Shown here: piece by piece, positions 20,586 through 53,406 of the stretch
How positions within the stretch are numbered: position 1 is the stretch's first letter
Layout of the letters: the number at the start of each line of letters is the position of its first letter
Assembly: GCF_964355755.1 (NCBI RefSeq)
Contig: NC_092678.1
Span: 7,456,422 to 7,520,421 of the forward strand
DNA from: Antedon mediterranea
Taxonomy: Eukaryota; Animalia; Echinodermata
Direction: 5' to 3'
DNA: 64,000 bases
The notes under the pieces: model-generated
Told to the model about the DNA's origin: nothing
Database searches by the model: none
What the model saw: the letters and a program-made list of their open reading frames with translations, nothing else
Translations under genes and position numbers: made by a program

Positions 20586-21573
20586 TTTATTTATTTAAAT
20601 TTCTGCCAAATACAAGGTTTATTATGTAAACTTGCTACAGTAGTTAATCAAAATAAAACAATGAGATCTATTTATTTATTTGTTCTTTCTGTAAACTGAA
20701 ATACATTTTCAATACAAATGTACTGATTTCCAAAGTGGTTCAGTAAACATATTTATAAAAAAAATAAAATAGAATGCAAACGTTTGAAAACATTTTTAAA
20801 ATGAGTGTTGAATTAAATAAATGTAAAATTATGTCCTACAGTAGGCTCCATTATAATGTTGTCTATAATGAAATTCAAACCAGCATAGATTTTCACATAT
20901 TCTTAAATCTAGCTATCACATTTCAATTTACTTAAATGACTTCTAAATATCCTTGATATCATTTTGTCAACACAAAGTTTATTTTATCAATTTATGTAGA
21001 AATCATCTGACATAATTTAAGAGAAGATTAATATAGGATATAGTAAATTACCAACTTGGGAGCCAGCAATGTGGTAATTTATTGAAACTGTTTTTTCAAC
21101 AACTAAAATCAGTGCGTGTGTGTACACACATTTTTCTAGTGATAAATAATGTTAAAAATAGCTTTTTCATGCTGTATTGTGAGGGAAATTATTTTGTAAT
21201 TCTAAAGCCTATTCTAAAGTTCAGATCAATTTTTATTTTAAAACATTTTCCTGGTTGGTAAAAATGTTTACACAAACCCACCAACAGTGGTGTATGTAGT
21301 TTGTGTGCCTGTTAACCTGGATAAACCGAATATATTTATGAAAGAGGATAGTAGACCACCCCTATTGGATAATGGTATTGGAACGCTTATGTCTGTGATC
21401 TTGCAATTAGAATTTTGGTGGAAAATTGTATCGTTTAAATTGGTTATTTCTAACCAAATATGTATGTTCAAGAGATGTGGTCTTTACACCATACACTTTA
21501 TAGTATCTTTATTTTGTATAGAAAAGCAACAATTCCATGTTTACAATTTGGTAAAATCTTTTAAAATACTAAA

Positions 21574-21756
21574 AGTGGAGATGTAGCTTGGTGGTTATTG
21601 AGCTTGCCTTTTAATCCAAAGGTACGAGGCTCAATTCTGACCTAGTGCCAGGGTTGCAATTCACGACTCAAATAAATGAGTTTATAAGCACAATAAATTA
21701 TTAAATAGGTTATCCTGCCTGTAATTCGCTGTTGGATGCGTATGAAATAAAAAAAA
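21574..21756 (+). mobile_element. tRNA-derived SINE, copy 1
   Basis: Head has an A-box-like TAGCTTGGTGG and a degenerate B box GGCTCAATTC. Body contains cacgactc and gctgttggatgcgtatg, and the tail is A-rich. Homologous to 47195-47394. Confidence 0.75.
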
Positions 21757-23577: not shown

Positions 23578-23790
23578 GGGCCTGTTTCTACTGAGCAACA
23601 GAGAATACAGATTTAAAACGCCATATAATTTGAAGGGTTACCATTTTGAAAGAACAGAACTTTCTTGTCAACAGGTTCACAAAAAGAACAGCTTATTTAT
23701 ATACTTTTAAAAACCTCAATTGATTCCGGTCTCTATCATCAACTCTTGGAGAAATTTTCAGCTTCAAAACAATCTTTTATAAAACCTTTC
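23578..23790. mobile_element. Degenerate partial copy of the 6694-7494 Harbinger-type MITE
   Basis: gggcctgtttctactgagcaacagagaatacag matches the left end of the 6694 element. The right TIR was not found. Confidence 0.6.
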
Positions 23791-24194
23791 CATTCTTTTC
23801 AAATTGAGACTGAACACCTACAGTTATAAAACTATCAATATAACCTGTACAATTTCAATTTTTTAACCGTATTGAGATATTTCTTGTCTACTTTCAAAAG
23901 AATAGACAAAATTCTTTTAATAATGACATAATAAGATGATCTCATCCGTTATTGTGTGACAAGTTTTACTACTACTAAGTAATCTTTGTACATTATTGTA
24001 CCTTCACAATACCAATACTATTGTAGTGCAAAAGACATATTTGAATGACTTATCAAAACGCACATCGTTTCTTTTATTATATATTATAATGTATACAATC
24101 CTGGGCCTAATATTTACATCACTTTGAATGGTAACTGGTTACAATATTATACAATACAGGCTTCCTTACAGGCTTTCGATTTCTACATATTTAT

Positions 24195-24934
24195 GGGTAT
24201 TGCTAAACACCGCAAACCCCGCAAACCCCCGCAAACCTCCAAAAAAACATAGCAAACCCCACCGAACCAACATAAAAGTGATTGAATCATGTAGTGTACA
24301 ACCCACTGGGTATATCAATGTAAAAAAAAAATTAAATTTCTACTGTTAACAACTTATTTTTGGGGTAAAACATCATTTTTTGGTCAAAAATGATTGTTAA
24401 ACCCCGCAAACCTCCAAAAAACCATAGCAAACCCCACCGAACCAACATTAAAGTGATTGAATAATGTAGTGTACGACCCACTCGGTATATAAATATTAAA
24501 TTTCTACTGTTAACTACTTTTTTGCAGATAAAACATCATTTTTTGGTTAAAAATTAGCAATCATTTTTGACCAAAAAATGATGTTTTACCCCAAAAATAA
24601 ATAGTTAACAGTAGAAATTTAATATTTTTTTTACATGGATATACCCAGTGGGTTGTACACTACATGATTCAATCACTTTTATGTTGGTTCGGTGGGGTTT
24701 GCTATATTTTTTTGGAGGTTTGCGGGGTTTAGCAATCATTTTTGACCAAAAAATGATGTTTTACCCCAAAAATAAATTGTTAACAGTAGAAATTTAATTT
24801 TTTTTTTACATGGATATACCCAGTGGGTTGTACACTACATGATTTAATCACTTTCATGTTGGTTCGATGGGGTTTGCTATGTTTTTTTGGAGGTTTGCGG
24901 GGGTTTGCGGGGTTTGCGGTGTTTAGCAATACCC
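24195..24934. mobile_element. Foldback-type non-autonomous DNA transposon, copy 2
   Basis: Same TIR. 8-bp TSD ATATTTAT at 24187-24194 and 24935-24942. Two forward and two reverse modules form a near-perfect 740-bp palindrome. Confidence 0.92.
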
Positions 24935-25079
24935 ATATTTATAACCAGAATATAAATTAGTCTGTTATTAAACACTACGATTCTACATTCATATTCACTC
25001 TCATCACAATTACTTTTTTTTTTATGAACATATTAAAAATACATTATGAGATTTAATTTATCGAAATATTAATTGTTAA

Positions 25080-25266
25080 AGCTTCCATTCTCACTAGAAT
25101 GCAACACAAGGAAACACGCAACACAACTGATTTGACCAATCGCGAGATAATCCAAACGGTTGTTTTTAATTTTTGTTTTTTTGGACGCAAATAAATTATG
25201 TCTTTTGAATTGAATTATATGCGTTGTGTGTACGTAATTCTATTGCGTCCTAGTGGGAACCCAGCT
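25080..25266. mobile_element. Small old MITE
   Basis: Imperfect TIR agcttccattctcactag / ctagtgggaacccagct, flanked by taa/tta, with internal gcaac/gttg inverted repeats. Confidence 0.45.
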
Positions 25267-25387
25267 TTAGCAAGATGTGTAATTATGCTGCAGAAATCGT
25301 CCACTTATCCATCTAAAATCTTATTTTAAGACCTTTTACCTGCTGTACCTTAATTTTTAAAAAAACAAGAAAACAGTACCTAATTAA

Positions 25388-25899
25388 TATAGCAAACCCC
25401 ACCGAACCAACATTAAAGTGATTGAATAATGTAGTGTACGACCCACTGGGTATATAAATATTAAATTTCTACTGTTAACTACTTTTTTGCGGATAAAACA
25501 TCATTTTTTGGTTAAAAATTAGCAATTATTTTTGACCAAAAAATGATGTTTTACCCCAAAAATAAATAGTTAACAGTAGAAATTTAATATTTTTTTTACA
25601 TGGATATACCCAGTAGGTTGTACACTACATGATTCAATCACTTTTATGTTGGTTCGGTGGGGTTTGCTATATTTTTTTGGAGGTTTGCGGGGTTTAGCAA
25701 TCATTTTTGACCAAAAAATGATGTTTTACCCCAAAAATAAGTTGTTAACAGTAGAAATTTAATTTTTTTTTTACATGGATATACCCAGTAGGTTGTACAC
25801 TACATGATTCAATCACTTTTATGTTGGTTCGATGGGGTTTGCTATGTTTTTTTGGAGGTTTGCGGGGGTTTGCGGGGTTTGCGGTGTTTAGCAATACCC
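25388..25899. mobile_element. Foldback-type element, copy 3 (left-truncated)
   Basis: Near-identical to about 24423-24934 and ends in TTTAGCAATACCC. The left TIR is missing. Confidence 0.88.
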
Positions 25900-25919
25900 T
25901 TTTCAAAGAGCAAAACAAT

Positions 25920-26327
25920 AAACATAACGTTTATCTTTTTTCTTCATATTGTAATATATGAAACTTGAAAGTAATTATGCACTTTCATAATATGTCACTG
26001 TTTAAAATTTGTGAAGATTTTATCATAGTAAAAATTATGATTTAGTTCGGTATGTAATAATCAACTTGCATCGAGGGGTTCACGACAATTCTTCGGATTT
26101 TCTTCAGCAGGTGCTCATGTGGCTCGATGTGTAGTGCAACCGCCTTTGGTATCAGAGGTACCGGGATCGAATCCCATCAGGCGAAAACAATTAAATAAAA
26201 TGATTTATTTGGTTATTACACCGAAAGGGCAGTTTTAATTTTGAATGAGAGTACTTGAATGCGAAAGATAAGTTTTGTTACGGGCGGATAACCAAACTCG
26301 TCCTCAAGTGACGAGTTCCATGTCTAG
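25920..26327 (+). mobile_element. 3' end of a related Helentron-type element, containing a tRNA-like segment
   Basis: Same terminus GCGGATAACCaaACTCGTC...GACGAGTtccatgtCTAGttt at 26284-26330. The 5' boundary is uncertain. Confidence 0.6.
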
Positions 26328-28940
26328 TTTACAGTTATGTTTACTAAGGAATGTAATTGTATTAAACTACTGTGGAGTAGCTTTGCGTCAGGGAGTTGAG
26401 TAATTGGTCAGATGTTTAGCCCTACTCTGATGCAATTTGTACTTCATACTACAGTAAGTACATTTGAGAATACTTGCGAATTTTGCAAATGTCTATCAAT
26501 GTGGGCTGGTTAAGTCTTGTATGGCTGATGCAAGGTTGTCATTTAATAGCTTTAATATTCCCCAGCTTTCTGTAACAGCCCAAGGTATGATCTTATGACC
26601 TTGTTGCCATAGCAACTGTAAGTTTGGGTATACCATACCACATTCAAACTAACCATTCACAAAAGCCCATCATATACTGTACAGTACAGTTAGTACATTA
26701 ATAACCTGTATTAATGCCAACTATAGTACTGTATAATTATCAAAACTATTTTTGTGAATTACAAACGCATGAATCCAAGGTATTAAAACATTTCAATCTA
26801 ACAACCAAATCTGCTATCATTATTATATCATTTGGTATATCTATTGAAAGTAATAAAACCGACCAATTAAGTAAATTAATTACAGGCTTAAATTGTCTAG
26901 CAACCGTCAACAAACACCTAATGTAAACTTACTGTTAGCAATAATATTAGTCTAAAGTATGTTTTGTGTTTGTCCGACAAGCACAATGGTAAAGGAAGTT
27001 ATAGTGTGGATATGTTCAATCACGTGAAAGTAACCAGCAACGCTTTTGTTAACGTCTTTCAATCTTTAACACAAGAGGCGACAGGTTAAAACCAACAAAG
27101 AAAGTCTACAAAGAAAGCTTTTTTAAAATGTGTGTGTAACTACTACAGGTAAAAAAGTTTTTTTCTTTTAATATGATCTATTTAGGTTAAAAAATATGGA
27201 CCAAGACTTTGGTCAATTCCATTTTTAATAAAATCTGATTATAATTCCATCCCTAATTGTTGAAACATCGTGTACCAAACTTGATGGTGGGTGCAAATAA
27301 TTTTTTGGGTAGAATGAAGAAAGTTATTTAAACAACCCAGTCAACAACTACTGTATCTTTAAGTAACTTTATTTTTATAAATTAAAGTGAATTTGTTGAT
27401 ACATTTTTTTTAATGACTTATCATAATCATAGATAGTTAATATTAAAATGTAGATTGTACATAATAAATAACAATGACAAAATCATAGTGCAAATATTTT
27501 GCTAAATTGTTCTTTGGACTTCCTACTGTAGTTGTTGTAAAATTTGATAAAATATCAAGATATAAACAATAATTGCGACAGTCCGAGTCCATCACAGTTA
27601 AAATATGTGCAGTTGTTGGAATTTATAGATACCGGTAGTAAATTTAAAAAAAATTCTAAAATTACTAAATTATACTGATTGTATGTATATAAATTTAGGA
27701 AAGTTGTTTTTGAGTGGTGTTTTCGGTAACCTTTATTTCTAAAATAAAAATGATGAAAATAAATACTAGGCCTAGAGTATGATAGTGAAAAGTTCATTAG
27801 GAGTGTATTAATTACAATCCTATTTCGGTTTCATGTAAAAGATCAGTAGATATCAAACACATGAGAACAACAGCCCAGTTGATTAAACAATACCTCAGCA
27901 AGAGCAGGCATAGACCTCATTATCTTAACAATAAAAATGGCCTGAAAGGGTGTAACTGAAGGTGACACTGGACAATACCTCCTGGTTGTAGAGTTACAAA
28001 GTGCCTGTTGTGGAATTCTATTGTAATATGCCTCTACAAAGTGTTGCTGGGTGTTCAAATCATGGTGAGCTCTCCTGAATATGGACTTTCACAAAACCAG
28101 AAGTTTTTCAAATAATATGATGATGATTGAACAGACAATCAATATAAATTAGTAGTTTTACAAATTTTATATTAATTTTGAAATTTCATTCAGAAAAAAT
28201 ACAGGGTTTTCGATATTGAGACAGCATTAAAAAGATCTATAAACAGGTTTTGACTTTATATTTGAGTTATATTTAGCAAATATACAGTATAAATAGAAAT
28301 GGCAAGGAACAGTTGATAAAGGGAAATTCAGGACTTTTTACAAACTATTTAACACAGTTTTGGTTGATCAACTTTGCATTAAAAGAATATCTTGTAGAAT
28401 CTAATCTATTGATAATAGAAACTTGTACAGTATGATGTAACGTTTAAAAGATGCTATCTTTTATTGTTTGGAAAACTGGCAGTAATTTTGAAGCGTGTCG
28501 TAGTTATTATTTTTATTGTGATAAATAATGTACAATAAAATAAAAAACACAAGTTGTCCCACTCAACAAATATTTTAAGTATTTTTAAAAGATAAATTAT
28601 AAAACAAAACAACATTTTTATAGGCATTAAATGAATGAAAAACATTATATGCTGCTGAAGCAAAGTAAAAACAAGTTCATGCCTGTGATTTCAACACAGA
28701 GTTAATTTTGGAAATATTTTTTAAATGTGCTGACATCCCCCCCCCCCCCCAAATATGGTAGCAATATGCTTAAGTATGGTAGTGATATGACATTATCATA
28801 ACCATATATGGGCACAACACAAAAAAGTTTGTTGATAGTGTAGACAAAGATTTATAATGAAAAACATACTGTACATGACCGATCTCCAATATGAAGTTTA
28901 ACCTCACCCCAAATTTTAGGACACAAGACTTAGGTAAATC

Positions 28941-30641
28941 CAGGCCTCGAATTTGGGGATTTTAGGGGCAAGGCCATTTGGCCTCCGGTTTTCGTTGATT
29001 TGAGGGGCACCAAGGCCAAATGGGAGGGCACCAAGGCCATTTGTTTTAAATCGAAGGGGCACCAAGGCCAAAATTAAAAAATATTTTAATAACTAGGCCA
29101 AAATTTAAAAATAGCTTGTTTCCGGTTGAGCGCCGGGTGGAATTTTTTTCAAAAAAAAAAAAATTCTACCCGCAAACATTTTTGGGGGAATTTCCCCTAT
29201 TCATCAGATTGCGTAGTAGTAGTAGTAGGAGAGGACTGTCTACATCTTTTTGTATTTCATTATATATAAATATTACGTGTATTTACGATCCATATAAATA
29301 ATAATTATTAAGGTACGATGTTTAGCGTTCACAGTTGTTTCGTTTAGTTTCAAACAATGCGATCAAAAAAAGGCATGTGAAGCCGGCCAGGCCCAACGGG
29401 TAAAGACCCTAACAACAGCAAGCACTTAGCAGCACTAAGGCGCAGCGGACGGAGAACACAGGTTACAAAAACAATTTGTTTGTAGGCCTTAACTACAACT
29501 ATTCATACACAGAGTGTTAACCACGGTAAAAATCAAGCCAATGACATTATGTTGTAGAATATAAATTATTGTTATTTTCCGAGTTTCGATTTCTGAAGCT
29601 TTTTTGTTAGTATAATCCATATTCATAAGAATTCAAAACACGGACGGACGCCGACCCCTCTCTCTCTCTCTCTCTCTGTTTAGCCTTCTGCACGTGTATT
29701 GTGGTTGTGGATTATACCATTTCCTTGAGTTCGGTAAAAACGCGTTTGTTAATTTAGTGTACGACGTCGTTAAACAAGATTTTTCGATGATCTGTCGGCT
29801 GGATTATTGAGGTGGGTGCGATAAAATATAAATATAATATACTTCCAACGATCTTCGGGTTGAGGTACCGGTTTAACTTTAGTACTAAAAGTTGACACCC
29901 CTAATTTTACACGTATAATGGAATGGACTACACCATGCAGGAACGCACATGGTATTTTCATATCAGAGGGTGCGTGTACGTCAAAAGGAATTGTTTTTCC
30001 AACGACCGATCCTTCGTACTCACACGTACGACGACGACGTCGTGTGAAATTTCTTATCAGAGGGTGCGTGTGCGTCAAATGGAATTGTTTTCCCAATGTA
30101 TTGAATCGTGTGTGTTTGTTGATCGGATCGGCGGCGGGAGGATAGGACAAGGAGTGCGTGTAATTTTTTTTTCAACGAAGGCGGCTAGCTCGATTATTGA
30201 GGCGGGGGTGGTGCGACTTTAATACTTTCAGTGACCTCCGATCGAGGAACGTTTTTAGCTTTATTATTAAAAGTGTACACCCCTGTATTTTAATGTACTA
30301 TCTATACCATTATTTACCACGCACGGCGGCCGGGACGATATTGTTTTGGTTATATAAATAATAATTATGTTCGATGTTTTCTCTAAATGCGTTTAGGGAA
30401 ATCCCCTTGCAACGAAGACAGGCGATAGTTTTGCGTCTCGTCCGATATTCTTGACATTATTTTCTATCTACTTCAGTGGTTTTTATTGTGGTAAAACTCG
30501 GGAAGGGCACTCACGGCCAACGCAAAAAAAAGGGCAGGCCAGTAGTGGCCGTGGGTGCTATTAATTTTCGAGGGCATTGAGGCCAACTGGGAGGGCACCG
30601 ACGGCACTGGCCGCGGTGGCCGCGGTAAAATTCGAGGCCTG
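28941..30641. mobile_element. Non-autonomous hAT-like DNA transposon (1.7 kb)
   Basis: TIR CAGGCCTCGAATTT...AAATTCGAGGCCTG, with subterminal repeats of AGGGCAC and GGCCA at both ends. The flanking duplication is TAAATC (6 bp), or GTAAATCC (8 bp) if the ends are AGG/CCT. No transposase ORF. Confidence 0.85.
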
Positions 30642-30766
30642 TAAATCCATTGTTAATATAGATTATATCTCATCCCATGTTTGACAAATTTTTCACCCAG
30701 GCCCTATAGGACTATGTATACACGGCCATATACAGTAACTAACAGTAGGCTAAGATGTAGGCTTAC

Positions 30767-31543
30767 CTGAAACTTTCACAGTAAATGGCACAACACCTGG
30801 AATATTAGAGTCTTCTAAATCAGGATTCAATTTTATACCTCCAGTTTCACTATCCAAAAACAATATGTTATTTCTGTTCCCGTCAACAATATGGTAACTA
30901 AGTTTGTCGTTGACATCAGGATCTCGTGCCGGGACAGTACCGATGGTCTCGCCTTTCGGAAAATGGCCAACGTAATTATTAAAATAAATGTCAAAATTCT
31001 CAAGTAGTGGGGAATTATCGTTAATATCGTCAACGTATATGATTAACGTGGCAAACGAAAAGAAGGGATCAGAGGTTGCTTTGATTTGCAGCCAGTACGT
31101 ACTACGAGCCTCGTAGTCTATGTTACCGTTAGTGGTTATTTCTCCCGTGTATGCATCAAGGGAGAAGAGGTCTGCTACTTCTTCAGAAGTAATCTCGTAA
31201 ATAATAAAAGCATTAGCGCCCGTATCATCATCAGTGGCTTGAATAGTTCCTACAAAAGATCCTAAGTCGCTATTTTCCTCAATGTGCATTGTGGGATTTT
31301 CGTTGGTAAATACAGGAACATTGTCATTTACATCCAGTAACGTCACAAGTATGTTAACTGCCGTCTCCCGCAGTCCTCCATCTCTTGCAATGGCAACAAG
31401 ATGGTAGACTGATACCTCTTCACGATCTAATTTACAGTCGGGATGGGGACAAGTTCGTATTATACCACTCGCTGAGTCAATATCAAATTTACCATCGCCA
31501 TCATTACCACCGTCAAATGTATAGATTATGGTCCCAAATGTAC
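30767..31543 (-). CDS. CELSR: CELSR coding exon 2: rest of EC7, EC8 and most of EC9
   Basis: Acceptor tttttcag|GTACA at 31544/31543 continues the frame: G-TFGTIIYTFDGGNDGDGKFDIDSASGIIRT...LDREE...DVNDNVP...DINDNSPLLENFDIYFNNY...IGTVPARDPDVNDKLSY. Donor TCA G|gtaagc at 30767/30766. 777 nt, phase 1-1. Confidence 0.95.
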
Positions 31544-31639
31544 CTGAAAAAATATAAATAATCCCAAAAAATCCATATCAAATTACTATGTTTATTATGA
31601 TCGCGTATAATTCCATGGAGCATGGATATGACACATGGG

Positions 31640-31997
31640 CAAACCAAAAAAAAAAACCTGTGCAGACCTCCGCCAAATCACGTATTATTTTTTTCATAAA
31701 TTACTTCCTATGATAGTCCTAGTCATGATAGAACCAATAATAAGCCATTTGGAGGAGGTTTGCGCAGGTTTTTTTTTTGGTTTGCACGATTTAAACTGTA
31801 TCTGACATTTTACCCAAAAAATGATGTTTTTCGTCCCCAAAAAAAACCAACTTACATCAATTTCATAATTTTTTTTTCATAAATTACTTGCTATGATAGT
31901 CCTAGTCATGATAGAACCAATAATAAGCCATTTAAAGGAGGTTTGCGCATGGTTTTTTTTTGGTTGGCGCTTGGTTTGCGCAGTTTAGCAATACCCC
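31640..31997. mobile_element. Diverged relative of the foldback family in CELSR intron 1
   Basis: Ends in gtttagcaataccc, shares aaaaaatgatgtttt and ggaggtttgcg motifs, and has its own internally duplicated module (cataaattactt...gatagtcctagtcatgatagaacc x2). Confidence 0.7.
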
Positions 31998-32267
31998 ATT
32001 TTAGTCATCTGACAACATTTTTTACTACACTGTTGATTATGCATAGCTTTTTAAAATGCCTCTCAATTTACAAAATTTGTGTACAAATTTTATTGTATTA
32101 AATTTGAACTATCCTCCCACTGATAAGAAAGTGCTTATTTTTAACAAGTTTGTGTAACACAAATAAAATCCCAAAACTTATGAAACATAGGGGAAACTAT
32201 AGATCGATAATTATGGGAATGTATGATCAAAAGAAATTTTTTGTCTGCACCTGGCCTTTAAACTTAC

Positions 32268-35166
32268 CCTCATCTCGATCGCTTGCACTTATTTGGATCA
32301 CACTATGACGTGAATTTACGTTTTCTTTTACATCCGCCGAATAGGAGTCAAATTGAAAAACTGGATCGTTATCATTTACGTCTGTAACCGTAATTTCAAC
32401 ATTTGTATACCCATATTTCACAGGGTTCCCATGATCACTTGCTTTTACACGTATACTGTAACTAATTTGATTTTCGCGGTCGAGTTCCAATTTTGTCCTC
32501 ACATCTCCGGATACTGGATCAACTTCAAAGGTTTGCTCAAAGTCCATCGAATATGTTATACGAGCATTTTCCCCAATGTCGTTGTCAACAGCTTCGACGG
32601 TTATCACTTTGGTACCGACCGAAACATCCTCAGGTACATTCGCACTATAGGGCGCTTGATTAAAAACCGGAGCATAAGTGTTGGCATCGGAAACGTTAAT
32701 AAATACCACACATGTATCTGATAGCTGACCATCAGATGCTTCAACGGTCAAGGCAAAACGCCCTTCTTGATTATAATCCAATCGCTGGACAACTGATATT
32801 TCACCTTTGTTCTCCTGCGTTCGGATGTTAAATCGATTGCGTAAATTCCCAGCGGTAATCTGGTACGAAACATAGGTATCGAGGTCTGGATCATCTGCAA
32901 CAATTGTGATGACATGTGTAGGAATACCGGCGTCCTCATCAACTACAGTTTGGTAAGACTGCTGAGAGAATCTCGGAGGGTTATCGTTGATGTCAGTTAT
33001 TCTAACTATAACTGTAGTTGTTGCACTTTGTTGAGGATCCCCGCCATCTACTACTTTAACAGTAAATTGATATATTTCATTAGATTCTCGATCAAGTTGT
33101 GAGGATGTTGTAATAAATACACGACCACCAACAGTTTCAATTGTGAATGGAAAATCAGAATCTGTCTCTATAATACTAAACGTCAACCTGCCATTTTCTC
33201 CCGAATCTTGATCAAAAGCAATGACTTCCATTACTTCATGGCCAACGTCAACGTTCTCGGACACAGACTGTTGAAAGACATTTCCAGTAAAAGTTGGCGT
33301 GTTATCATTGATGTCAATGACATTCACAAGGACTTGTGTGGTGTTAGATAATGATTGAGCACCACTGTCCAGTGCCTTGACAACAAGACGATGGCTTCTC
33401 TCTACCTCATAATCTAACTCCTGTATCAGAGTTAAATCTCCATTTATACTGTCAATCATGAAAAGTCCTCGTTCATTTCCACTGTATATTCTGTATCGTA
33501 CCTCTTGATTACGACCTAAGTCTTTATCCGTGGCAACAATTCTTAAAAGGACTTGATTGTTAGTATTGGTGTTTTCTTCGACATCAATTTCGTAATTCCT
33601 TTGCATAAACTGTGGAGTATTGTCGTTAACATCCAGGACAGTGATTGTCATTTGAGTAGTGTTACTTCGAGATGGATTGCCATTATCAGAAGCTTGGATA
33701 TTGAGGTTGTAAGTGTCAATGGTCTCTCTATCCAACTTCCTTCTGGTTTTCACAGCCCCAGAACTCTGAATTGAAAAGACATCATTTGGAGGCTCAGGAT
33801 TTAAGATCTCATAAGTAATTTCAGCATTTGCTCCATCATCAAAATCTACAGCATGTACGGTTGAAACTACAGTTCCAGCTATCAGCCCTTCATTGATTTG
33901 TTCATGATAATGGTCTGACTCAAAATCCGGCGTGTGATCATTCTTATCCAGAACGTTGATAGTTAACATGGCTACTCCGATTCCTGGCGGATAACCGCCA
34001 TCTGTTGCCATAATATTGAAAGTATGCGTGGAAATAAACTCTCGATCTAAAGATGCTTGAGTCCGGATAATGCCATTTGTTTCTCCGATTGTGAATCTGG
34101 AGTTACTTCTGCTATCTGTCTGTGCTTCCATTGTGTAAGTGATTACTCCAGCAGCACCAGAGTCGCTATCCGAGGCAATGATTGTGTCAACAATATAGTC
34201 AGCATTCTCATTTTCAGGAACCGTCACTGTATAGAAATTCTGCAAAAAACGAGGATTGGAGTTGCGTGTTGACCGTCGTAATCTTCTTTTTGGCTCTTTA
34301 ATTTCAGAGCCGGAAAATTTTGACATGGTTGTATCTTTAAAAGATGCTGCCGAAATGGTTAACTTAACAGGAATGAGAAACAGACTGTAGTCACGTGCAG
34401 CGTTACACTGTGTTCCAGCATGTAAACCAAGACTATAATGCATTTCAATATACTGAGTGGTGCTAAAACAAAATGTTTGCGCAGGCCAGGCTTTGAGTTC
34501 TCCGGTAAGCGGGTCTAAAATCACACTAATGTGGGCACCGTAATGATCCAAAACGGAGTAAAGTAAATCAGGACAATCCTTAAACGATGCAGGGAGGAAG
34601 TCGTACAAAGGAACGATTGGTGATCCAGCTTGAAAACAATTTCCTGGCGGATAATTAACAACTATCATATGTTCTGCCTTTGGCCAAAACTCTGAATCAA
34701 CATCTCTGCCAAGATATGAAGTCCTTTGCACGTTTGCTCTCCAATGACAATTTTTTCCATGAACATGTACTGTAACTGGGACAAGGGAGTACACAGTTGC
34801 ATGACTATTTTCTATATAAGAATCTAATTTACTGTAAGAAGTCCGTTTATTTGTAGCTTCAATGTAAATAGTGAACGGATTATGAAATTTTGGCAATTGA
34901 TTTAAGCAGTTTATATTTCGTTTTAATCGAATTTCTCCTGATTCGGGTGATAAACTCAACAAGTATTTTCCCAAACTGGAACTCATTTTATCAAAAAAAT
35001 TATACTTCCAATGTTCACCGACTGTTGCATTGAAAATGAGTTCGTCAATCTCGATTGAGTCTGAAATATGTATGTTATACCCATGGATGGGGTAAACATT
35101 TAGTAAAATAAACCCTACACATAAAAACCACTTCAGATATGCGATCAGTCCGCGGTGGTACCCCAT
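32268..35166 (-). CDS. CELSR: CELSR/Flamingo coding exon 1: signal peptide, prodomain, furin site, cadherin repeats EC1-EC6 and start of EC7
   Basis: Lies within ORF 32227..35241, which opens on TTG. The ATG at 35166 has a strong context (gacaaaATGG) and is followed by the signal peptide MGYHRGLIAYLKWFLCVGFILLNVYPIHG. KRRLRR is at 34273-34290. Repeated LDRE/LDYE and DxNDNxP motifs follow, with the CELSR-typical non-canonical EC5-6 linker DANTYAP. Donor GAG G|gtaagt at 32268/32267 (phase 1). An alternative in-frame ATG at 35214 has a weaker context. Confidence 0.95.
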
Positions 35167-37402
35167 TTTGTCTACTGAGTACAAACAAACCCTACCGCCT
35201 GAGCATTCGCCCATAAAGCAAGCGATGCTTAAATTCAACAAGTACGTTCTCCGTAATAACTTCTATGACTTAAAATAACGAATCATCTTTACGTTCCTGT
35301 ATCCATCTTTAAAAAAGACAATAATAATCCATTGGAATTTAAAATACAAGTAGTCACTCAACGTAATTCCAGTAAATCCACAGCGTTCGGGTAGAATCTA
35401 CCTGTAGTACTACCAGCAACCGCTCGCTTCTTTCACTGTTTACCCAAGCGCATACTTACAATTCACACGATGCCCAGTTTAAAACAAGTTATTAAAGAGG
35501 GCGCTAGATAACTTTCACAGTCAATATTTGCCTTACTGCTACTGTGCTAAAAATATAAAATTAGAAATACTCCAAGCAAATAAACAAATAAATATTTAAA
35601 ATATAATAATTTCAATAACAATAACAAATAAAGAAAAAAATCTCAGAAGTTAAATTTATAAAAATGTAAATGTTCGTGTCTAATCGCCTGTCTAGGTTTT
35701 TCCTTATATTTGCCGTTTTCTGTGCTTTTTTATTGTTGAATCTTTTTATGTATGCCTGCCTTGATATTTACTACGCGCAATAAAATAGCGCTTAGTAAAA
35801 GAAAGAAAACAAACTAGAACATGCACCCTATGTATGATCTTTAAAACACATTGGGAAAAGCTTGTACTTTTATAAATTAAATATAGGCATATTATATTAT
35901 TTCTACAAATGTTCTTGCCAGAATTCCAAATCGATGTAGGCCTACTCGAAGTGAAAGTAAGAGGAAATTTGTCGTCTCTTTTCCTAAAAGTTTTATCTAC
36001 AGAGCACTAACCTATCCGAATACAGCATGCTTCCCTCCAAACTGAGGAACGCGGTGTCAATAAATAATGTTAAGTCTTCTCTGAAAAGTAGGCCTACACG
36101 TCCCTATAATAACCGTCGTGTTTTCGTAAAGTCCCTAATATAAATTCTTTGACTCCGCCTAAATCCGAGCACCGTCCCTTTAACTGTTAGCATTATTTGT
36201 CATTTTATAAGTGAAATAATTGTTGTTGTCTCTTTTTCTACGAAATGGATTAAAAAACTGCAAAATGACCTATTTCAGGACTGATTTTATTAAGCTTTAT
36301 TTTTAATGTTTTTGAGGGACACAATGCATCTTTCGTTTATTGAATTGACAACAAAAAGACAAGAGAGAAATCAGCGTCTAATTTATATTTATTTATAACT
36401 ATTATATACACATTTGTTTTATTGTAATACATTATACAGGTTGTTATTCTTCAGGTTCGATGGATAAGTATATTTGAAACGTTGCATTTTAATTTACATT
36501 GATGGGGTGCACACTTCTACATTCGTATACTTGTTTTCCAGTAGACATTGTAATAAATATCGCCCTCTATCAATTATATTAGGCCCAAATTCTGTTGCCG
36601 CGCCGCGTGTGTAGGCAGTTATATTCCAGAGGAGAAAAGCATTAGTAAACTGTATTACGGGGAAGCTTATACTTACTACGGCTGGGCATTTGGAAACTCG
36701 GATCGGCCATACGCAACTCCCAAAGCACGTCTGGGAGAAGAGACTATGAGATGTATGCATACTTTAGTGGTCCTTAGGGAGTAACGCCTCTGCTGCAGAC
36801 TTTAGTGTGGGTCACATGTCCTTAAGGAGTAGGCCTAACGTGTAACCCCGAAATATGTACAGTACTATAGTTTAGTATACGTTTATAAACGGGTTGTTGA
36901 TATTTATAACGATATTACCAGTATTATTACCAACTTAAATTTCTATATAGAGGGCTACGGCAAAGTTCCAAGAGCGCACTTGTTTCTTAGGCACCGATAC
37001 AAATATTTTATTTATCCATGGTCAACGAATTTAGAAGTAAAACATATTTTAGTTATTCTTATCATGAATTATCGTCTGTGGTTTCCCATTACAATTCTAG
37101 TAGGTGTTATGCACAATGAACATTAGAGCGTGTCGTAAGCACATATTATCCATGCTCAGGCTCTACTTTAGATCTAAGTCTAAATTTGTAATGAATTAAA
37201 AGACTTTACAGGGTTCCGTGTACAACCACTCATGTAGATCGGACTTCTAACCAGTGGTCAAAAAAGCCTTTAAAAAGCTGGATGTCCCTTCACTATTATT
37301 TAAATTAAAACAAAACTGTATGCTGTTCAGATCCCATAGATCTAGCATAGTTTCAATATCATGTCTTTTCTCACAGAAAGGCCTAAGTAATTAAAACGAG
37401 CC

Positions 37403-38220
37403 TCATATGTCTCCAATGATTTCCTGTGGTGGTAAGAAAGCTGGCACTCCACACTCTCTATCTTCTGCTGCCTTTAGCTGCTGTGTCCAATATCTCAGTC
37501 TCATTGAGGCAACACGTCTCTCCATTTGGCGAACTCTTAACTCCGTCTCTTGTGTTTCTAATTTTGTCTTCAAAATCGTCGTTGTCAGTTGTCTTTGCTC
37601 CTCATTATAATTGTTACAGGGGCATTTGGTGTTATCATCAATATCGTCTGGTGGAGATGACGTGACTGTAGGCCTACTTGTAGGCCTATAGACCGGCACA
37701 GTGGTTTTTTTAAAGAATTCCGCGGTAGAGATTTGGAAAGTTGTATTTATTGACCATTGGTAAGATTCCGGAGTCGTCTGTGAATCTAATTCTGGAACTG
37801 CAGTAGTTGAACCGGTGCTATTTGCATAATGTAATCTTAAAGGTGAAACTAATGATGTGACGTCAGTCGTTGATGGGACGTCGGCTGTTGGTGTGACGCC
37901 AGGTGTTGGTGTGACGCCGGGTGTTGGTGTGACGCCGGGTGTTAGTGTGACGCCGGGTGTTTGTGTGACGCCAGGTGTTGGTGCGACGCCAAGTGTTAGT
38001 GTGACGCCAAGTGTTGATGTGACGCCAGTTGTTGGCGTGACGCCAGGTGTTGGTGTGTCGCCAGGTGTTGGTGTGACGTCAGGCGTTGGTGTGACGTCAA
38101 CCGTTGGCGTGATGTCATCACGAATTTGATCATTAAGCGGTATTGATGCGTCTATAGTGTAGGATAAAGTAGTCTGTGAAGTTTTATTTTGTAAAGATTC
38201 TGGTGAAAATGTAATCGGTT
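37403..38220 (-). CDS. Secreted CELSR-derived cadherin-repeat protein, terminal exon 3 (Thr/Pro-rich mucin-like stalk, CPC, predicted coiled coil, stop)
   Basis: Acceptor ttttgttttgcag|AACCG at 38221/38220 keeps the frame (E-PITFSPES), and the stop TGA ends at 37403. Exon sum 2080+507+818 = 3405 nt = 1134 aa plus stop. There is no hydrophobic TM stretch. A candidate AATAAA on the minus strand lies at 37007-37012. Confidence 0.8.
37852..38115. repeat. Coding 18-bp minisatellite (about 14 units) encoding the TPGVTP hexapeptide
   Basis: GGTGTGACGCCAGGTGTT-like units are repeated in tandem and translate on the minus strand as (VTPTPG)n. Confidence 0.95.
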
Positions 38221-38457
38221 CTGCAAAACAAAAATTCAACAGTGTTAATGAAATAAACTCTATCATTAAGTGCCAATTTCATACCTCGTTTAAAATGTTG
38301 ATGTGTAATATATTGGCAGTTCTCTCGAAAGAGAGGAACGCACACAGTGTACTCTTAAAATGTACTGACTATAAAATGTTTGAAAAGTAATTTTTATTAA
38401 AGAATCTTCTTAAATTGTATTGTGTAAAAAAAAAAAACGTCAACATTCATGAATTAC

Positions 38458-38964
38458 CTGATGTCCTATTTCTTATGACTCGAATCACAAGTGGTTCTTG
38501 AATTGTGTATTGCCCGCATGTCGCAACAATCTCTAGTCTGTCATAAACATTCTTGTTTCGCTGTGCCAAATTTCGTTTTGTCACCAAAACACCCGATGTT
38601 GTACCAATATTGAAGAACTTTGAGTCTTGTTTACTCAAACGAAATCGCACAGGCGTACTTATCTCATCATCCGGATCGGAAAGTTCTACCTTTCCGATGT
38701 AAGTTCCACTTCTACTGTTTTCATGTACCTCATACTCTGTCGGTGACACTATGCGCGGAGGGTTATCATCAACGTCTGTAACTTTGATATGGATAGGTGT
38801 GGAAGTCTGATGGGTTCCGTCTGATGCTGTGGCCAAAAGGTTGAATTCTGGTGTGAGTTCTCTATCAAGGCTGTAGTTTTCTCTGGTTTTAACTTCACCC
38901 GTTTTAGCATCGATAACAAAGTAAATGCTATACGTGTTTTCTTGTAAACTATAAGTTATGCCGG
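38458..38964 (-). CDS. Secreted CELSR-derived cadherin-repeat protein, exon 2 (rest of EC7, EC8)
   Basis: Acceptor ttcttttttcag|CCGGC gives A-GITYSLQENTYSIYFVIDAKTGEVKTRENYSLDRELTPEFNLLATASDG...DVDDNPP.... Donor TCA G|gtaatt at 38458/38457. 507 nt, phase 1-1. Confidence 0.9.
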
Positions 38965-39395
38965 CTGAAAAAAGAAGAAAATCTTGGTTATTTCTATCTA
39001 TTCATCGCTTTACTAATAGTTTTCAATTACGCCGCTTGCCATCATTCCAACCTAAACTCATCATCACATTCTCAGCACCACGACATCGTCATTACTAGGC
39101 CATATTACTATCCCATTGTGAAATTGAGTTCTGCCGAAAATCACAAGTAGCAAGATTTTACTAATTTGCTAATATCTTTATTGGAAAAAAACAATACGCA
39201 TAGTAGGCCTAAGTACAAATGTTGACATGGTCGATTCTCTATAGTGCCGTTTATACTTTCATTGATCCGAGTAGGTTGGAAGATTACGTCATACACATAG
39301 GAATTATTTCAATGTTAAATTAAGCTAAAATTTGGTAAAATATGTGGCGCAACTTCAACCACACTTCACACAATTTGAATAAAGACCGTATTTAC

Positions 39396-41475
39396 CAGAA
39401 GTATGGTTATCTTTGTCGTTGGCTTCCACTTTTATAACATAGACTGAGTTGTTGTTATTTTCCTGTACCACTCCAAAATACGGTAAGTTCAAAAACTGGG
39501 GTCGGTTATCATTCATATCAACCACTAAAATATTTACTGTCGTCCAGCTTTGTCTAGGTGGTTCACCCCCGTCTGTAGCAGTTATATTGAAAGCATGGCG
39601 GTCAATTATTTCACGATCTAACTCCGCAGCCGTAAAAATTTCTCCCGATGATTGATCAATGGTAAAATACGGATTGAATTTCATTGAGTATGTTACGTAA
39701 CCGTTTACGCCCGCGTCATTATCGGTAGCTCGTACCTGCAAAACGCGTTTGCCAACAGATTGATTTTCATACAAAAACGCATTATAAATCCAATTTTCAA
39801 AAAGAGGTGTGTTTCTGTTTATAATTTCAATAGTAATGTTACAAATAGACTCATGCACAGAGTCAGATGCCGACAATGTTATATCATACCTGCGAAGTTC
39901 AATTTGCTTAGAAACTAGAACTGAAACTCCATTTTCATTTGTAGATATCTTAAACACATTCCCCTTATTACCAAACTTAATTCGATACGAAATATCGCCG
40001 ACAGAGTCGACATCAGAAATTATCAGACGAGTGACCTCAGTTCCCAGAGTAGTGTCATGCAATTGTATTTTGTCTTGACAATTTTCAATCACAGGTTGAT
40101 TGTCATTGACATCTTTTATCAAGATACGCATGCGAACAATATACGGTGACTCACATTCCACCTGGATTTTAAAAACATAAAAATTAATAGTCTCTCTATC
40201 TAAACCAGATGTTGTAAACACTGATCCAGTCTTTTCATCTATTCGAAAAGGCAAGTCTTCACTAGAGTTCAACATATTATAACTTGAAACTTCCGCGTTA
40301 TAATCAAATTTGTGGATTTGGGAATTAGTGGGTGTGTCCTCTGGTATTGATAAATTAAACGAACTTTTGTATCTCTGAATGAAAGGTTTGTCCACATTAA
40401 CAGTTACTGACGTATCCTTCACGCGTAAAGCAAAACCAACATGTTGCGCGCGCACCAGCAGACGATAACTCATAAGATCATTTTCTAAATTATTTGTTAA
40501 ATATAATTCTCCACTAGATTGATTGATTTTAAAATAAATACTTCCATTAATGATATTATACGAGATGTTGGCTTTTTGATCAGACGGTTGCCACGACGTT
40601 GCCTTAACTTCTCCAATTTTCGAATCTTTTGTTGTGTTTTCAGAGATTGTCATTGTATAATTCACCGACAAAAACTTTGGTCTGACGTCATACACTGATA
40701 TCTTAACTTTGGTCCTAGACGTCTTTGGCGGGTTACCACCATCACTCCCTTCAATGATTAAAGTATAATCACCAATTCTATCAACACCAAATATCTTTTT
40801 GTTCGCGATTTCCCCGTTTCTTTTGCACCTGAATATCTTGTTCCTATGCAGTGGATTTAAGAGTCTGTACGTAACCTGCCCGTTTTCATCGTTGTCTTTA
40901 TCGGTTGCTTTGACGGTCAAAATCGTTGTTCCTTTACTAACTTCAAACGCAACCGAAGCTCTATATCGCAACTGCTCAAACACTGGTGTGTAAAAGTTTC
41001 CTACCGTTAAGACGTCAATAGTCAGAACTGCAAGCGCCATTGGCGATGTTAATGAATTGACGGCTGTAGCAGTAACTATGAATACATGCGTCTTTAAAAC
41101 ATCAACCCCTGGCTTACTAACCCGTATGACTCCAGTATTTGGTTCAACATAAAAATAATCTTTACTTAAGCCATTGTCTGTTCTAAGTTGATATGCTATT
41201 CCAGTATAATCACGAGACGGATCGTCCTCAACTACAGTTATTCTCCCGATTGTGTAACCTGGTTCAGCACTTGCTGGAATTGTAAAATTAAACCGATCAG
41301 AAGTAAAACGGATTTTGTAAATGTCATTACCAAAATCTTCTGAGCCGCTGCCGTCTGGGTCGAAATCCGTCAGCGTTCGATGTTCAGAGGTTTGACTGAA
41401 ATCAGGCGGTGAATAGCCATATGTAAACGGACAAAGATAACTAATCATAAAAACTAATACAAAGGTAAAATCCAT
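39396..41475 (-). CDS. Secreted CELSR-derived cadherin-repeat protein, exon 1 (signal peptide, EC1-EC6, start of EC7)
   Basis: ORF 39355..41544 opens on GTG. The ATG at 41475 has a strong context (gacacaATGG) and is followed by the hydrophobic signal peptide MDFTFVLVFMISYLCPFTYG. Cadherin repeats are collinear with the neighbouring CELSR exon 1. Donor TCT G|gtaaat at 39396/39395 (phase 1). Confidence 0.9.
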
Positions 41476-42639
41476 TGTGTCTTTGTAAACTCTACAACCA
41501 GATACACATGGTAGGCCTGTCAGCCTTGGCTCTTCTGAGCTCACTCGGGCCAGTTATCGTGGGGAATCAAATATTACAATGAGCATAGTTCACAATGACG
41601 GTTTAGATAGTCCTCTCCGGAAAAAAGCGCGCCATCTATTAACTTATTGGTCGATTATGATCGATCACTGCCGGCCTATTTCATAGAATCATGAGTCTAA
41701 AGTCGCAAAAATATTATACATGATGTTTGCATAAGAGTGTAAATCATTACAAAATAGAGCACAAGTCCACGGTGATGTGTCTATCTGTAGACCTAATTAT
41801 GTTTATGTTCCACACAAGTTGTATATAATTCAGCCAGTAAATGTGACGTGGATATAGGCCCCAACAAATATTGTGTAAAGTTCGGGTTACAAAGTTTATT
41901 TTATAAGCAGACGATCAGAAAATTCCCAGGCCCTACAGGAACCCATCGATTGATCTTTATTGTTTCCACCTGTGGTACTAGTAAATGTAGGGGCAACACG
42001 TTCCTTAGCTTCACTTGCTATTTTAGGCCAATAATAAACTTAAACGCTACCCAACGGAACAGTGAGTAATCGGTATCGGGTCGCAGTTCATATTTCCACA
42101 AATAGCAAGTATACGGTACATTTTAAAAATGTGATAACGAAAGGGACAATGCGTGAAAATTTCTAAAAATCTAAAAAAAAGTTCAACGTCACAATTAACA
42201 ATGCCATATACATGGCTGCAGTCGCGTGCTCAAATTTGAGTTAGTGTTTACCGACCAACCGACCGACCAACATAGTAAGCTGAGTATTGTAAATAGACAG
42301 CACACTGTAGATTGGTTTCGAACGCGCACAGTATTAGGCCTATTCATCGATATAATAAAAGATTTGAATAGAAGAAAACAACAAACAGCACATGTTACGA
42401 ATCAACCTGTCGAGTTGCACAAAAACCTCAACATGTTGTCACAAAAAGCTGACCGTTGATTAGTAGGCCTACTATCTTTAAAAGAGTTGAATAGATGAAA
42501 GTAACAAACGGCACGTATGATATACAAATTAACCAATCAAAGGTGGGAGAATAATCGTTGAATGAGGTGAACTTGGTGGAACATACTAAAATTACTCTCA
42601 ACGTCTTTCAAAAGATTGTGTGTTCCGTAATTAGTTGCG

Positions 42640-52054: not shown

Positions 52055-53270
52055 ATTAACCTACACACATTTTCACTAACAAAATAACCATAACCAATTC
52101 CACTAATCTAATCCACTAACTAAACTACCGTAACTAATTCCACTAACTACATATTATGTTTACATTAACTAAACTACAGTTAACTAATTCCACTAACTAC
52201 ACATTATGTTTTCTGTTATCCAAAAACTACAGTAACTACTTCCACTAACCTATACACACGTTTGCACTACCAAAGAATAACAAATTCCACTAACCTATTA
52301 TGTTCACACTAACCAAGCTACAATAACTAATTTCACTAACCTGTGTTTAGACTAACCAAATTAAAAACTAATTCACTAACCTATTATGTTCACACTAACC
52401 AAGCTACAATAACTAATTTAACTAACCTATATAAGTGTTTAGACTAACCAAATTACAAACTAATTTAACTAACGTATTATGTTCACACTAACCAAACTAC
52501 AATAACTAATTTAACTAACCTACACATGTGTTTAGACAAACCAAATTACAAACTAATTTGACTAACCTACATATGTTTACACTAAGAATACTACCACAAA
52601 TTCCACTAACCTATTATGTTTACACTAACCAAACTACAATAACTAATTTAACTAACCTACACATGTGTTTAGACTAACCAAATTACAAACTAATTTCACT
52701 AACGTATTATGTTCACACTAACCAAGCTACAATAACTAATTTAACTAACCTACACATGTGTTTAGACTAACCAAATTACAAACTAATTTTACTAACGTAT
52801 TATGTTCACACTAACCAAGCTACAATAACTAATTTAACTAACCTACACATGTGTTTAGACTAACCAAATTACAAACTAATTTCACTAACGTATTATGTTC
52901 ACATTAACCAAGCTACAATAACTAATTTAACTAACATATACATGTGTTTAGACTAACCAAATTACAAACTAATTTTACTAACGTATTATGTTCACACTAA
53001 CCAAGCTACAATAACTAATTTAACTAACCTACACATGTGTTTAGACTAACCAAATTACAAACTAATTTTACTAACCTATTATGTTCACACTAACCAAACT
53101 ACAATAACTAATTTAAACTAACCTACACATGTGTTTAGACGAACCAAATTACAAACTAATTTGACTAACCTACATATGTTTACACTAAGAATACTACCAC
53201 AAATTCCACTAACCTATTATGTTTACACTAACCAAACTACCATAACCAATTCCACTAACCTACACATATG
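52055..53270. repeat. Minisatellite of 46-47-bp subunits forming a 93-bp higher-order repeat, abutting exon G
   Basis: For example, tattatgttcacactaacc recurs at 52705 and 52798. Units contain actaacctacacat, the reverse complement of the exon G donor junction. Confidence 0.92.
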
Positions 53271-53406
53271 TTTTCTGTTATCCATTCCACAGGCTTTGAT
53301 TGATTTAGCCACCAGTAAGTGAAGACCAGGATGATCCTTCCCCCAAAGCTCAGGGTGGAATAACCCTTCAGTACTCCGGAATCTACCATTGTCAACTCGT
53401 ACATGT
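53260..53406 (-). CDS. Actin-like domain exon G
   Basis: atttacag|A...AG|gttagt, 147 nt: G-HVRVDNGRFRSTEGLFHPELWGKDHPGLHLLVAKSIKACGMDNRKHMC (actin [21 protein letters not shown]...GIHE...SIMKCDVDIRK). Confidence 0.9.

Follow-up and report, generated by a model that had tools for sequence, protein, structure and literature searches.

The window (the whole 64-kb stretch of DNA analysed) contains, head to tail with CELSR, a real, spliced and conserved paralogue of that gene, encoding no membrane segment. Prediction points to a secreted product, and sequence comparison strongly supports derivation from CELSR EC1-8. The EC1-8 arm is not intact. The best explanation, which we give an even chance as a whole, is that CELSR exons 1 and 2 were duplicated in tandem and the copy was remodelled into an oligomeric, multivalent matrix adhesion protein, predicted to be secreted and to form disulfide-linked multimers via a Cys-x-Cys coiled-coil tail. 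Papers describing the paralogue or its Anneissia orthologue were not found in the literature.

Gene structure and transcript

The paralogue was assigned the following parts:

39396..41475, minus strand: exon 1 coding part, with the predicted signal peptide, a short acidic leader and EC1 to the start of EC7; X1 contig cover spans 39396-41693.
38965..39395, minus strand: intron 1, 431 nt, phase 1, within EC7; joint present in X1.
38458..38964, minus strand: exon 2, with the remainder of EC7 and EC8.
38221..38457, minus strand: intron 2, 237 nt, phase 1, immediately past EC8; joint present in X1.
37403..38220, minus strand: exon 3 coding part, with the Thr/Ser/Pro stalk and conserved tail.
36374..37402, minus strand: 3' untranslated part under the X1 contig, with AATAAA at 36423 and 36393; its true end is not fixable from the contig.

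The three exons had been described as splicing into one open frame, and they do: the spliced paralogue comprises 3405 nt and 1134 amino acids with one terminal stop, beginning at the first in-frame ATG downstream of a stop at 41556. Both introns are GT-AG and phase 1, and a single donor/acceptor combination was returned in the ranges scanned. The RNA junctions predicted at 39396-38964 and 38458-38220 were both found in X1, an RNA-like run whose kind was guessed and is backed by its CT..AC joints; one 4610-nt contig, with the stop codon inside it, carries such joints at 38220/38458 and 38964/39396, matching both introns exactly. Both joints are missing in X2-X5, and DNA runs retain both introns. 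Only contigs were used, and X1 is the one run on which expression is based; it also carries spliced CELSR. Cover in X1 is zero at 35524-36195, between the two genes, where lack of cover proves nothing, and expression cannot be ranked from the depths of 44 and 56.

Protein architecture and membrane anchorage

41416..41475, minus strand: predicted signal peptide, residues 1-20, hydropathy 1.48 (1.92 in the orthologue), cleavage site by eye.
41344..41355, minus strand: D-G-S-G motif, residues 41-44, candidate glycosaminoglycan attachment site.
40099..41316, minus strand: EC1-EC4, from profile and ligand count, with calcium ligands mostly lost at linkers 1-2, 2-3 and 3-4; model pLDDT 89.4.
38459..40098, minus strand: EC5-EC8, spanning intron 1; linkers 4-5, 6-7 and 7-8 retain calcium ligands and 5-6 is non-canonical, as in CELSR.
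37856..38096, minus strand: 18-nt tandem repeat, 13.4 copies, encoding stalk Thr/Pro hexapeptides, mostly missing in Anneissia.
37406..37624, minus strand: tail, with Cys-x-Cys at 37616-37624, a heptad helix at about 37460-37603 and a third Cys; 65% identical to Anneissia.

A profile made from Fat-type repeats only returned eight repeats in the paralogue (E 4e-7 or better), the exact number first reported, and eight in the Anneissia orthologue versus nine in the adjacent CELSR. Pfam searches of the three paralogue exons gave no EGF, LamG, GAIN or seven-pass domain, and a ninth repeat was also absent. The CELSR pro-region, EC9 and all downstream parts are lacking, and the last exon is new, with zero similarity between 37403..38220 and the examined part of CELSR.

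The signal peptide was called by eye and hydropathy. The highest 19-residue hydropathy values are 1.52 (a strand pair within EC1) and 1.48 (the N-terminus), versus 3.31 and 2.57 for the membrane segments of two control protocadherins, so that the original statement that no transmembrane segment is present holds; a single membrane segment as in Fat, Dachsous, cadherin-23 or protocadherins was not found by hydropathy. Cell-surface adhesion by a lineage-specific homophilic cadherin, through an unseen transmembrane or GPI isoform or through a basic tail held by a membrane partner or surface glycans, appears distinctly improbable. The tail helix is indeed basic (+6/+4) and conserved, and contigs from the one RNA-like run used drop rare isoforms, but the C-terminus is not hydrophobic (mean of the last 25 residues -0.1 in the paralogue and -0.52 in the orthologue) and both RefSeq isoforms of the orthologue share the same tail end. 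Splicing onto an exon encoding a membrane segment was looked for, and no other splice-type joint was seen in X1 contigs across 35300-42000.

The D-G-S-G motif, of the proteoglycan-type acidic Ser-Gly class, occurs once in each orthologue, 0 times in the examined part of CELSR and 116 times in 628,670 control residues; it is described in PMC8418075, where such a motif by itself is called an unreliable predictor. The stalk is mucin-like (48% Thr/Ser/Pro), and the protein has many N-glycosylation sequons. In the tail, all three cysteines are conserved in Anneissia, and a cysteine pair followed by a C-terminal heptad helix gives a matrilin-like pattern in both species. The heptad pattern is modest against shuffles (p 0.047 and 0.015) and covers 43 residues without Pro or Gly. 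No match to Pfam coiled-coil families was obtained, and relatives beyond Anneissia were found neither among 29 candidates nor among 1.84 billion representatives. The Atlas gave no usable tail match, and the whole orthologue matched generic cadherin clusters below 0.9 only. A possible origin of the tail from a Myb/SANT or transposon coiled coil was not supported, the Anneissia protein being the sole match.

Descent from CELSR EC1-8

The parent gene was examined over its first two coding exons:

32268..35166, minus strand: CELSR exon 1 coding part, with a pro-region of about 300 amino acids bearing a furin-type site, then EC1 to the start of EC7; X1 joint 31540/32265.
30767..31543, minus strand: CELSR exon 2, with the remainder of EC7, EC8 and most of EC9.

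In-register summed scores against CELSR reached z 18.4 and 20.0, versus maxima of 9.1 and 10.3 over 3173 control windows, and 1 of 362,880 permutations reached the observed score. In a concatenated tree, paralogue, orthologue and CELSR formed a clade with support 97/94, and with these two results the proposed derivation from EC1-8 is upheld. Only one CELSR was included in that tree, since all 120 matches listed for the CELSR orthologue search were giant cadherins, of Fat type or other kinds, and none was CELSR-like by BLAST; the shifted-CELSR row was left out. The stem measures 1.16 changes per column and the tips 0.30 and 0.19, lengths suggesting fast change and then constraint. Contiguous BLAST matched CELSR best (286 and 312 bits versus 221 and 240 for controls), the best in-register stretch was found on vertebrate CELSR1, and the top fold match of the EC1-EC4 model was human CELSR1 EC1-4.

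Correspondence in detail is less complete than first described. The repeat-for-repeat match to CELSR stands for seven of the eight repeats, while EC7 prefers EC6 in both species; identity to CELSR is 20-42% per repeat. The EC7 introns are both phase 1, as claimed, but lie three codons apart (offset 37 in the paralogue, 34 in CELSR), and CELSR has no intron directly after EC8, at the site of paralogue intron 2. The common non-canonical EC5-6 linker was borne out, with 7 of 10 calcium ligands in CELSR and 5 of 10 in paralogue and orthologue. Nucleotide similarity between the two genes is almost erased (best 65 nt at 71%), and tblastn found no EC9 remnant or extra copy within the window.

Origin of the repeats from Fat, Dachsous, cadherin-23 or protocadherins, with adjacency to CELSR by chance, was weighed against these data and is very improbable, being largely refuted. 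For most single repeats, some control repeat gives an equal or better match; paralogue EC2 alone scores higher on CELSR than on all 4679, and the named controls contain no crinoid Fat or Dachsous. The per-repeat phylogeny originally suggested as a check (100 rows, 105 columns, quick search, 62 of 97 inner branches open) placed 0 paralogue repeats beside the CELSR counterpart; it was uninformative because its weak joins to Fat repeats were flagged as long-branch meetings. Against this origin stand the colinear test, the concatenated clade, the BLAST scores, the CELSR1 matches, the shared linker defect and the nearby EC7 intron.

Calcium linkers and charge

The preliminary description called the adhesive arm intact, which the linkers contradict. 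Calcium ligands kept from linker 1-2 to linker 7-8, out of 10 at each, number 10, 10, 10, 10, 7, 10 and 9 in CELSR versus 5, 2, 5, 10, 5, 10 and 9 in the paralogue and 6, 3, 5, 10, 5, 10 and 9 in the Anneissia orthologue. The losses at linkers 1-2, 2-3 and 3-4 are the same in both species.

40684..40989, minus strand: EC2, net charge +6/+7 versus -12 for CELSR EC2; 84% identical between the two species, the best-conserved repeat.

A charge of at least +6 was found in 14 of 4679 control repeats, and the shift in EC2 is partly due to lost acidic ligands. EC8 of the paralogue is also basic and its EC7 has a net charge of -7/-8; CELSR EC7 and EC1 carry -11 and -8.

Orthologue and constraint

The orthologue in the crinoid Anneissia japonica (XP_033106747.1 / XP_033106746.1, database name 'CELSR1-like') has the same build and 64% identity (58-84% per repeat, 65% in the tail). 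Neither entry has a membrane segment, and isoforms X1 and X2 of Anneissia differ by one residue at the site matching intron 1. This orthologue and splicing at both introns in run X1 establish the gene as real.

A duplicate that decays or drifts neutrally while retaining transcription would account for the lost calcium sites, but this is extremely improbable. The frame is kept open in two species differing at about one-third of residues, both show the same ligand losses, and EC2 and the tail are conserved whereas stalk length varies (196 versus 112 residues in Anneissia). The polymorphisms listed in the paralogue are 12 non-synonymous and 13 synonymous, a pN/pS of 0.27 from just 25 sites; for CELSR, from a partial list, the ratio was higher (0.45).

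Proposed function

Decoy, ligand and matrix roles had all been suggested, and the matrix role is favoured here. The soluble ligand or decoy, whose arm would pair antiparallel with CELSR EC1-8 and either activate by clustering as a multimer or block CELSR-CELSR bridges, tuning planar polarity, is a possible but doubtful alternative. Exactly EC1-8 is held, and the cut point is not simply an exon border because CELSR exon 2 continues through EC9. The division between CADH1-8, the adhesive module, and CADH9-GAIN is in print (PMC12038025), and in flies isolated, membrane-tethered CAD1-8 engages full-length Flamingo in the absence of Frizzled and causes it to recruit Strabismus (PMC7616066). The basic repeats EC2 and EC8 could face CELSR EC7 and EC1, which are acidic, and both genes are spliced in X1. 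The matrix role was nevertheless preferred because identity to CELSR is low, no higher per repeat than for CELSR-Fat windows (up to 36%), and three calcium linkers are degenerate, whereas CELSR dimerisation is calcium-dependent and every repeat contributes (PMC12038025 and PMC7616066); deletion of any of three tested repeat pairs abolished Flamingo binding (PMC7616066). As a separate observation, adjacency to CELSR and presence in the same run fit a CELSR-pathway role equally well.

Larval attachment and calcite ossicles are features of crinoids. A narrower matrix reading makes the product a secreted glycoprotein specialised as a cement or for the skeletal matrix, serving larval attachment or the matrix of ossicles or ligaments, its repeats forming a fibrous or mineral-binding scaffold and not a recognition surface. 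Relatives were found in a crinoid only, the mucin-like stalk and numerous sequons would suit such a material, and coral skeletal matrix includes cadherin ectodomains (PMC4890752). The 84% conservation of EC2 suggests a specific partner over a bulk scaffold, and this reading is improbable.

In the preferred matrix adhesive, the signal peptide would direct export, the tail would bundle several chains in the fashion of matrilins, which oligomerise via cysteines and then a C-terminal coiled coil (PMC2427018), and the glycosylated Thr/Pro stalk would be a spacer between arms. The C-terminal half (EC4-5, EC6-8) would be calcium-rigid, with EC1-4 freed from calcium dependence. Arms may bind one another or sulfated glycans: basic EC2 would stand opposite acidic EC7 in CELSR's antiparallel register, a pairing taken from net charges and not from an interface model, and EC2 with EC8 could hold a glycosaminoglycan chain carried on the leader.

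EC1-8, a module isolated by design in two laboratories, has here been excised by evolution and retained in two species as a gene of its own, seen only in apparent crinoids. What was a receptor ectodomain appears to have become a protein that lacks an anchor and is probably multimeric, and its calcium sites were lost in a pattern common to both species. The gene offers a natural experiment for finding the repeats and linkers on which Flamingo adhesion depends. CELSR/Flamingo is a membrane receptor in planar cell polarity, and to our knowledge an extracellular polarity cue is a long-standing gap. If CELSR binding persists, the paralogue is a candidate for such a cue. A bolder and rather unlikely extension is a secreted, multivalent, 'always-open' Flamingo in the matrix of feather stars, which would bind CELSR via charge-reversed EC2 and EC8 and recruit Van Gogh/Strabismus without Frizzled, as a receptor-derived extracellular planar polarity cue.

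Comparison with known systems

CDHR5 (mu-protocadherin), T-cadherin and shed cadherin or adhesion GPCR ectodomains carry repeats on a mucin-like stalk or lack a cytoplasmic part; they span the membrane, are GPI-anchored or arise by cleavage, whereas the paralogue is an independent gene that has neither kind of anchor. Matrilins are secreted matrix adaptors with adhesion domains followed by cysteines and an oligomerising C-terminal coiled coil (PMC2427018); the paralogue sequence shows adhesion repeats, then a cysteine pair and a putative coiled coil. The paralogue has no vWA or EGF domain by Pfam, and the likeness is analogy, not homology, because its tail has no Pfam family and no relative beyond Anneissia.

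With the adhesion GPCR CELSR/Flamingo (ADGRC), the paralogue shares eight repeats colinear with EC1-8, the non-canonical 5-6 linker (PMC12038025 for CELSR), a phase-1 intron in the same EC7 loop and the same fold. It differs in lacking the pro-region, EC9, EGF, LamG, GAIN, 7TM and cytoplasmic parts, and in having three more degenerate calcium linkers, basic EC2 and EC8, and a new stalk and tail. The engineered CADH1-8 and CAD1-8 constructs (PMC12038025, PMC7616066) cover the same domain span and suffice for adhesion in cells; they are, however, unchanged, membrane-tethered receptor, and the paralogue is a natural, diverged and anchorless gene.

Gene structure

The paralog adjoins the CELSR/Flamingo gene head to tail, and the features considered here are as follows.
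41475-39396, minus strand, paralog exon 1
38964-38458, minus strand, paralog exon 2
38220-37403, minus strand, paralog exon 3 (stalk and tail)
35166-32268, minus strand, CELSR coding exon 1
31543-30767, minus strand, CELSR coding exon 2
16088-30766, CELSR intron 2 (about 14.7 kb by appearance)
16087 to about 15460, minus strand, next CELSR exon (end of EC9, following domain, EGF repeats)
22827-22898, minus strand, weak tRNA match in CELSR intron 2 (33.6 bits), possibly a tRNA-derived repeat
24554-24902 and 25519-25867, near-identical 175-nt two-copy arrays ~1 kb apart, with a relative at 17626-17953
32005-32505 (CELSR intron 1) and 42025-42525 (just upstream of the paralog), high-copy repeats, where the depth summed over contigs runs from thousands to tens of thousands
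52108-53273 (periods 93/49, overlapping a strong GC skew of -0.38), 58347-58553 (period 22) and 62158-62550 (periods 120/17), longer upstream tandem arrays

Joining of the three paralog exons gave 1134 codons with a single stop at the end, and a profile made from 150 of 1008 Fat-type repeats found eight cadherin repeats (EC) in the paralog and nine in the adjacent CELSR, which reproduces the open 1134-aa frame and exact repeat count of the preliminary description. The absence of a transmembrane segment, also claimed there, was borne out by hydropathy, which peaks at 1.52 and nowhere comes near membrane level, while two protocadherins score 3.31 and 2.57; a surface-held cadherin was considered improbable. 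A signal peptide was predicted by hydropathy and inspection alone. An R-x-K-R site within EC2 (40819-40830), kept in both species (residues 216 and 207), contains a cysteine with no partner inside the repeat; EC8 has a second such cysteine, and EC5 a conserved cysteine pair.

Expression and splicing

Contigs of five runs, none annotated as RNA, were compared over the paralog. In the RNA-like run X1 a single 4610-nt contig spanned 36374-41693 with CT..AC joints precisely at both predicted introns (junctions 39396-38964 and 38458-38220), whereas contigs of the DNA runs X2-X5 (one sample, perhaps that from which the window itself comes) read straight through both; the three-exon form, stop included, therefore exists. 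CELSR intron 1 was likewise spliced in X1, on a separate contig. No other splice joint, to a membrane-encoding exon or otherwise, was present in X1 contigs on 35300-42000, which give no rare isoforms, strand, transcript ends or tissue. The sole further joint, at 37003-37043 in the 3' untranslated region, marks a 41-nt deletion that X1 has in common with the DNA runs and that is hence a polymorphism rather than an intron. Upstream of the paralog start, the stretch 41476-41984 under X1 contigs has nine ATG triplets.

Ortholog and selection

The top match, best of 143 among 7991 candidates, was Anneissia japonica XP_033106747.1 (1046 aa, 64% identity across exon 1), the runner-up reaching 26%. 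RefSeq lists it solely by the name 'CELSR1-like'. Leader (a short acidic stretch before EC1), eight repeats, stalk and tail are all as in the paralog. At the intron 1 site a single residue distinguishes the two Anneissia isoforms, which suggests that this intron is probably shared. From this match a crinoid is the likely source of the window. A word-based search, weak for distant relatives and scoring part of the candidates, found no ortholog in another echinoderm class.

Between X1 and the window at least 25 coding differences were listed (12 non-synonymous, 13 synonymous), giving pN/pS 0.27; 12 of the 17 in the exon-1 piece were listed, and were the remaining five all non-synonymous the ratio would be 0.39. 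Since CELSR gave 0.45 among differences listed, this is modest support for constraint. In CELSR exons 1-2 (30918-35023) at least 19 non-synonymous and at least 12 synonymous differences were among those listed, more than such a conserved gene would lead one to expect.

Descent from CELSR

The neighbour was identified as CELSR by unbroken alignment of its EC1-7 part with solved vertebrate CELSR1 (498 bits), supported by EGF domains in its third exon. Over EC1-8 it was the best non-ortholog among 242 proteins for the paralog (286 versus 221 bits) and the best for the Anneissia ortholog (312, next best 240), whose best stretch against vertebrate CELSR1 was in register. The repeat-for-repeat match described previously held for seven of eight repeats in both species, EC7 scoring best on EC6. 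Single repeats were weak evidence of descent, because EC2 of the window protein was the only one to outscore every one of the 4679 control repeats, and the tree of single repeats, proposed earlier as a check, lacked resolution.

Whole arrays argue strongly for such descent. Summed z in register with CELSR EC1-8 was 18.4 and 20.0 (window protein, then ortholog), falling to -0.9 and -0.6 after a shift by one repeat, and the highest values in 3173 eight-repeat control windows were 9.1 and 10.3. A concatenated tree with one CELSR only, and with the best windows from 14 of 129 control proteins, the named ones excluding crinoid Fat or Dachsous, united both orthologs and CELSR at 97/94, so that the arrays joined CELSR rather than another cadherin family; the stem of the paralog pair was long (1.16) and the tips short (0.30 and 0.19). 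Human CELSR1 EC1-4 was the top fold match of an EC1-4 model (pLDDT 89.4), narrowly ahead of protocadherins. Both genes have a phase-1 intron within EC7, as previously described, although at positions three codons apart; the second paralog intron directly follows EC8, where the CELSR exon continues through EC9.

We infer that CELSR exons 1-2 were duplicated, the pro-region and EC9 lost and a new last exon gained, in line with the proposed duplication of the adhesive arm. The CELSR pro-region has roughly 300 residues (34258-35166) and ends close to residue 295, where there is a furin-type site; only about 35 residues separate signal peptide and EC1 in the paralog. As a gene the paralog is well supported; that it is real, CELSR-derived and devoid of a membrane segment is almost certain, and a non-CELSR origin or neutrality is, jointly, very improbable. 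Since it lacks the receptor domains that define the CELSR family, the paralog falls outside it.

Calcium sites and charge

The arm had been called intact, which the calcium sites between repeats contradict.

Calcium ligands kept, out of ten per linker (1-2 to 7-8)
CELSR: 10, 10, 10, 10, 7, 10, 9
Window protein: 5, 2, 5, 10, 5, 10, 9
Anneissia ortholog: 6, 3, 5, 10, 5, 10, 9

At linkers 1-2, 2-3 and 3-4 the motif is broken or shortened, with the same pattern in both species; the EC5-6 linker is non-canonical in both genes, as stated before. EC2, the most conserved repeat between species (84%), has a net charge of +6/+7 in the paralog pair against -12 in CELSR, and EC8 has +2/+8 against -17; among the 4679 control repeats, just 14 are at +6 or above.

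Leader, stalk, tail and possible function

One D-G-S-G copy lies in each species' leader and fits the glycosaminoglycan attachment motif as given in PMC8418075, which cautions that the motif by itself is misleading for prediction. In the stalk, which varies in length, Thr, Ser and Pro make up 48% and 38% of residues. The tail (65% identity) has a conserved Cys-x-Cys, then 43 residues free of Pro and Gly, and a third Cys; its heptad pattern is modest (p 0.047 and 0.015), and sequence and cluster searches found no tail relatives outside Anneissia.

CADH1-8 of CELSR is reported as necessary and sufficient for adhesion, through a dimer that depends on calcium and is proposed to run antiparallel, repeat 1 facing 8 and 2 facing 7 (PMC12038025); tethered CAD1-8 needs no Frizzled to bind full-length Flamingo, its binding leads to recruitment of Strabismus, and binding is lost when any one of the three repeat pairs tested is deleted (PMC7616066). 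The same EC1-8 span makes a CELSR ligand or decoy attractive, but with per-repeat identity to CELSR at 20-42% and calcium sites lost at three linkers, it is doubtful that binding to CELSR was retained, and such a role is unlikely. The derived gene probably still works by cadherin-arm adhesion. Of the roles put forward earlier (decoy, ligand or matrix protein) the last is favoured, since the putative glycan motif, mucin-like stalk and cysteines before a C-terminal heptad helix would match the parts of a matrix adaptor; a secreted multimeric matrix adhesive has about an even chance, and a cement or skeletal role is quite unlikely.

No description of such a protein was found in the searched literature (mainly open-access, supplements outside scope), including PMC4948710 and PMC4890752, in agreement with the preliminary description. 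There is a likeness to matrilins, in which, according to PMC2427018, cysteines likewise stand ahead of a C-terminal heptad helix.
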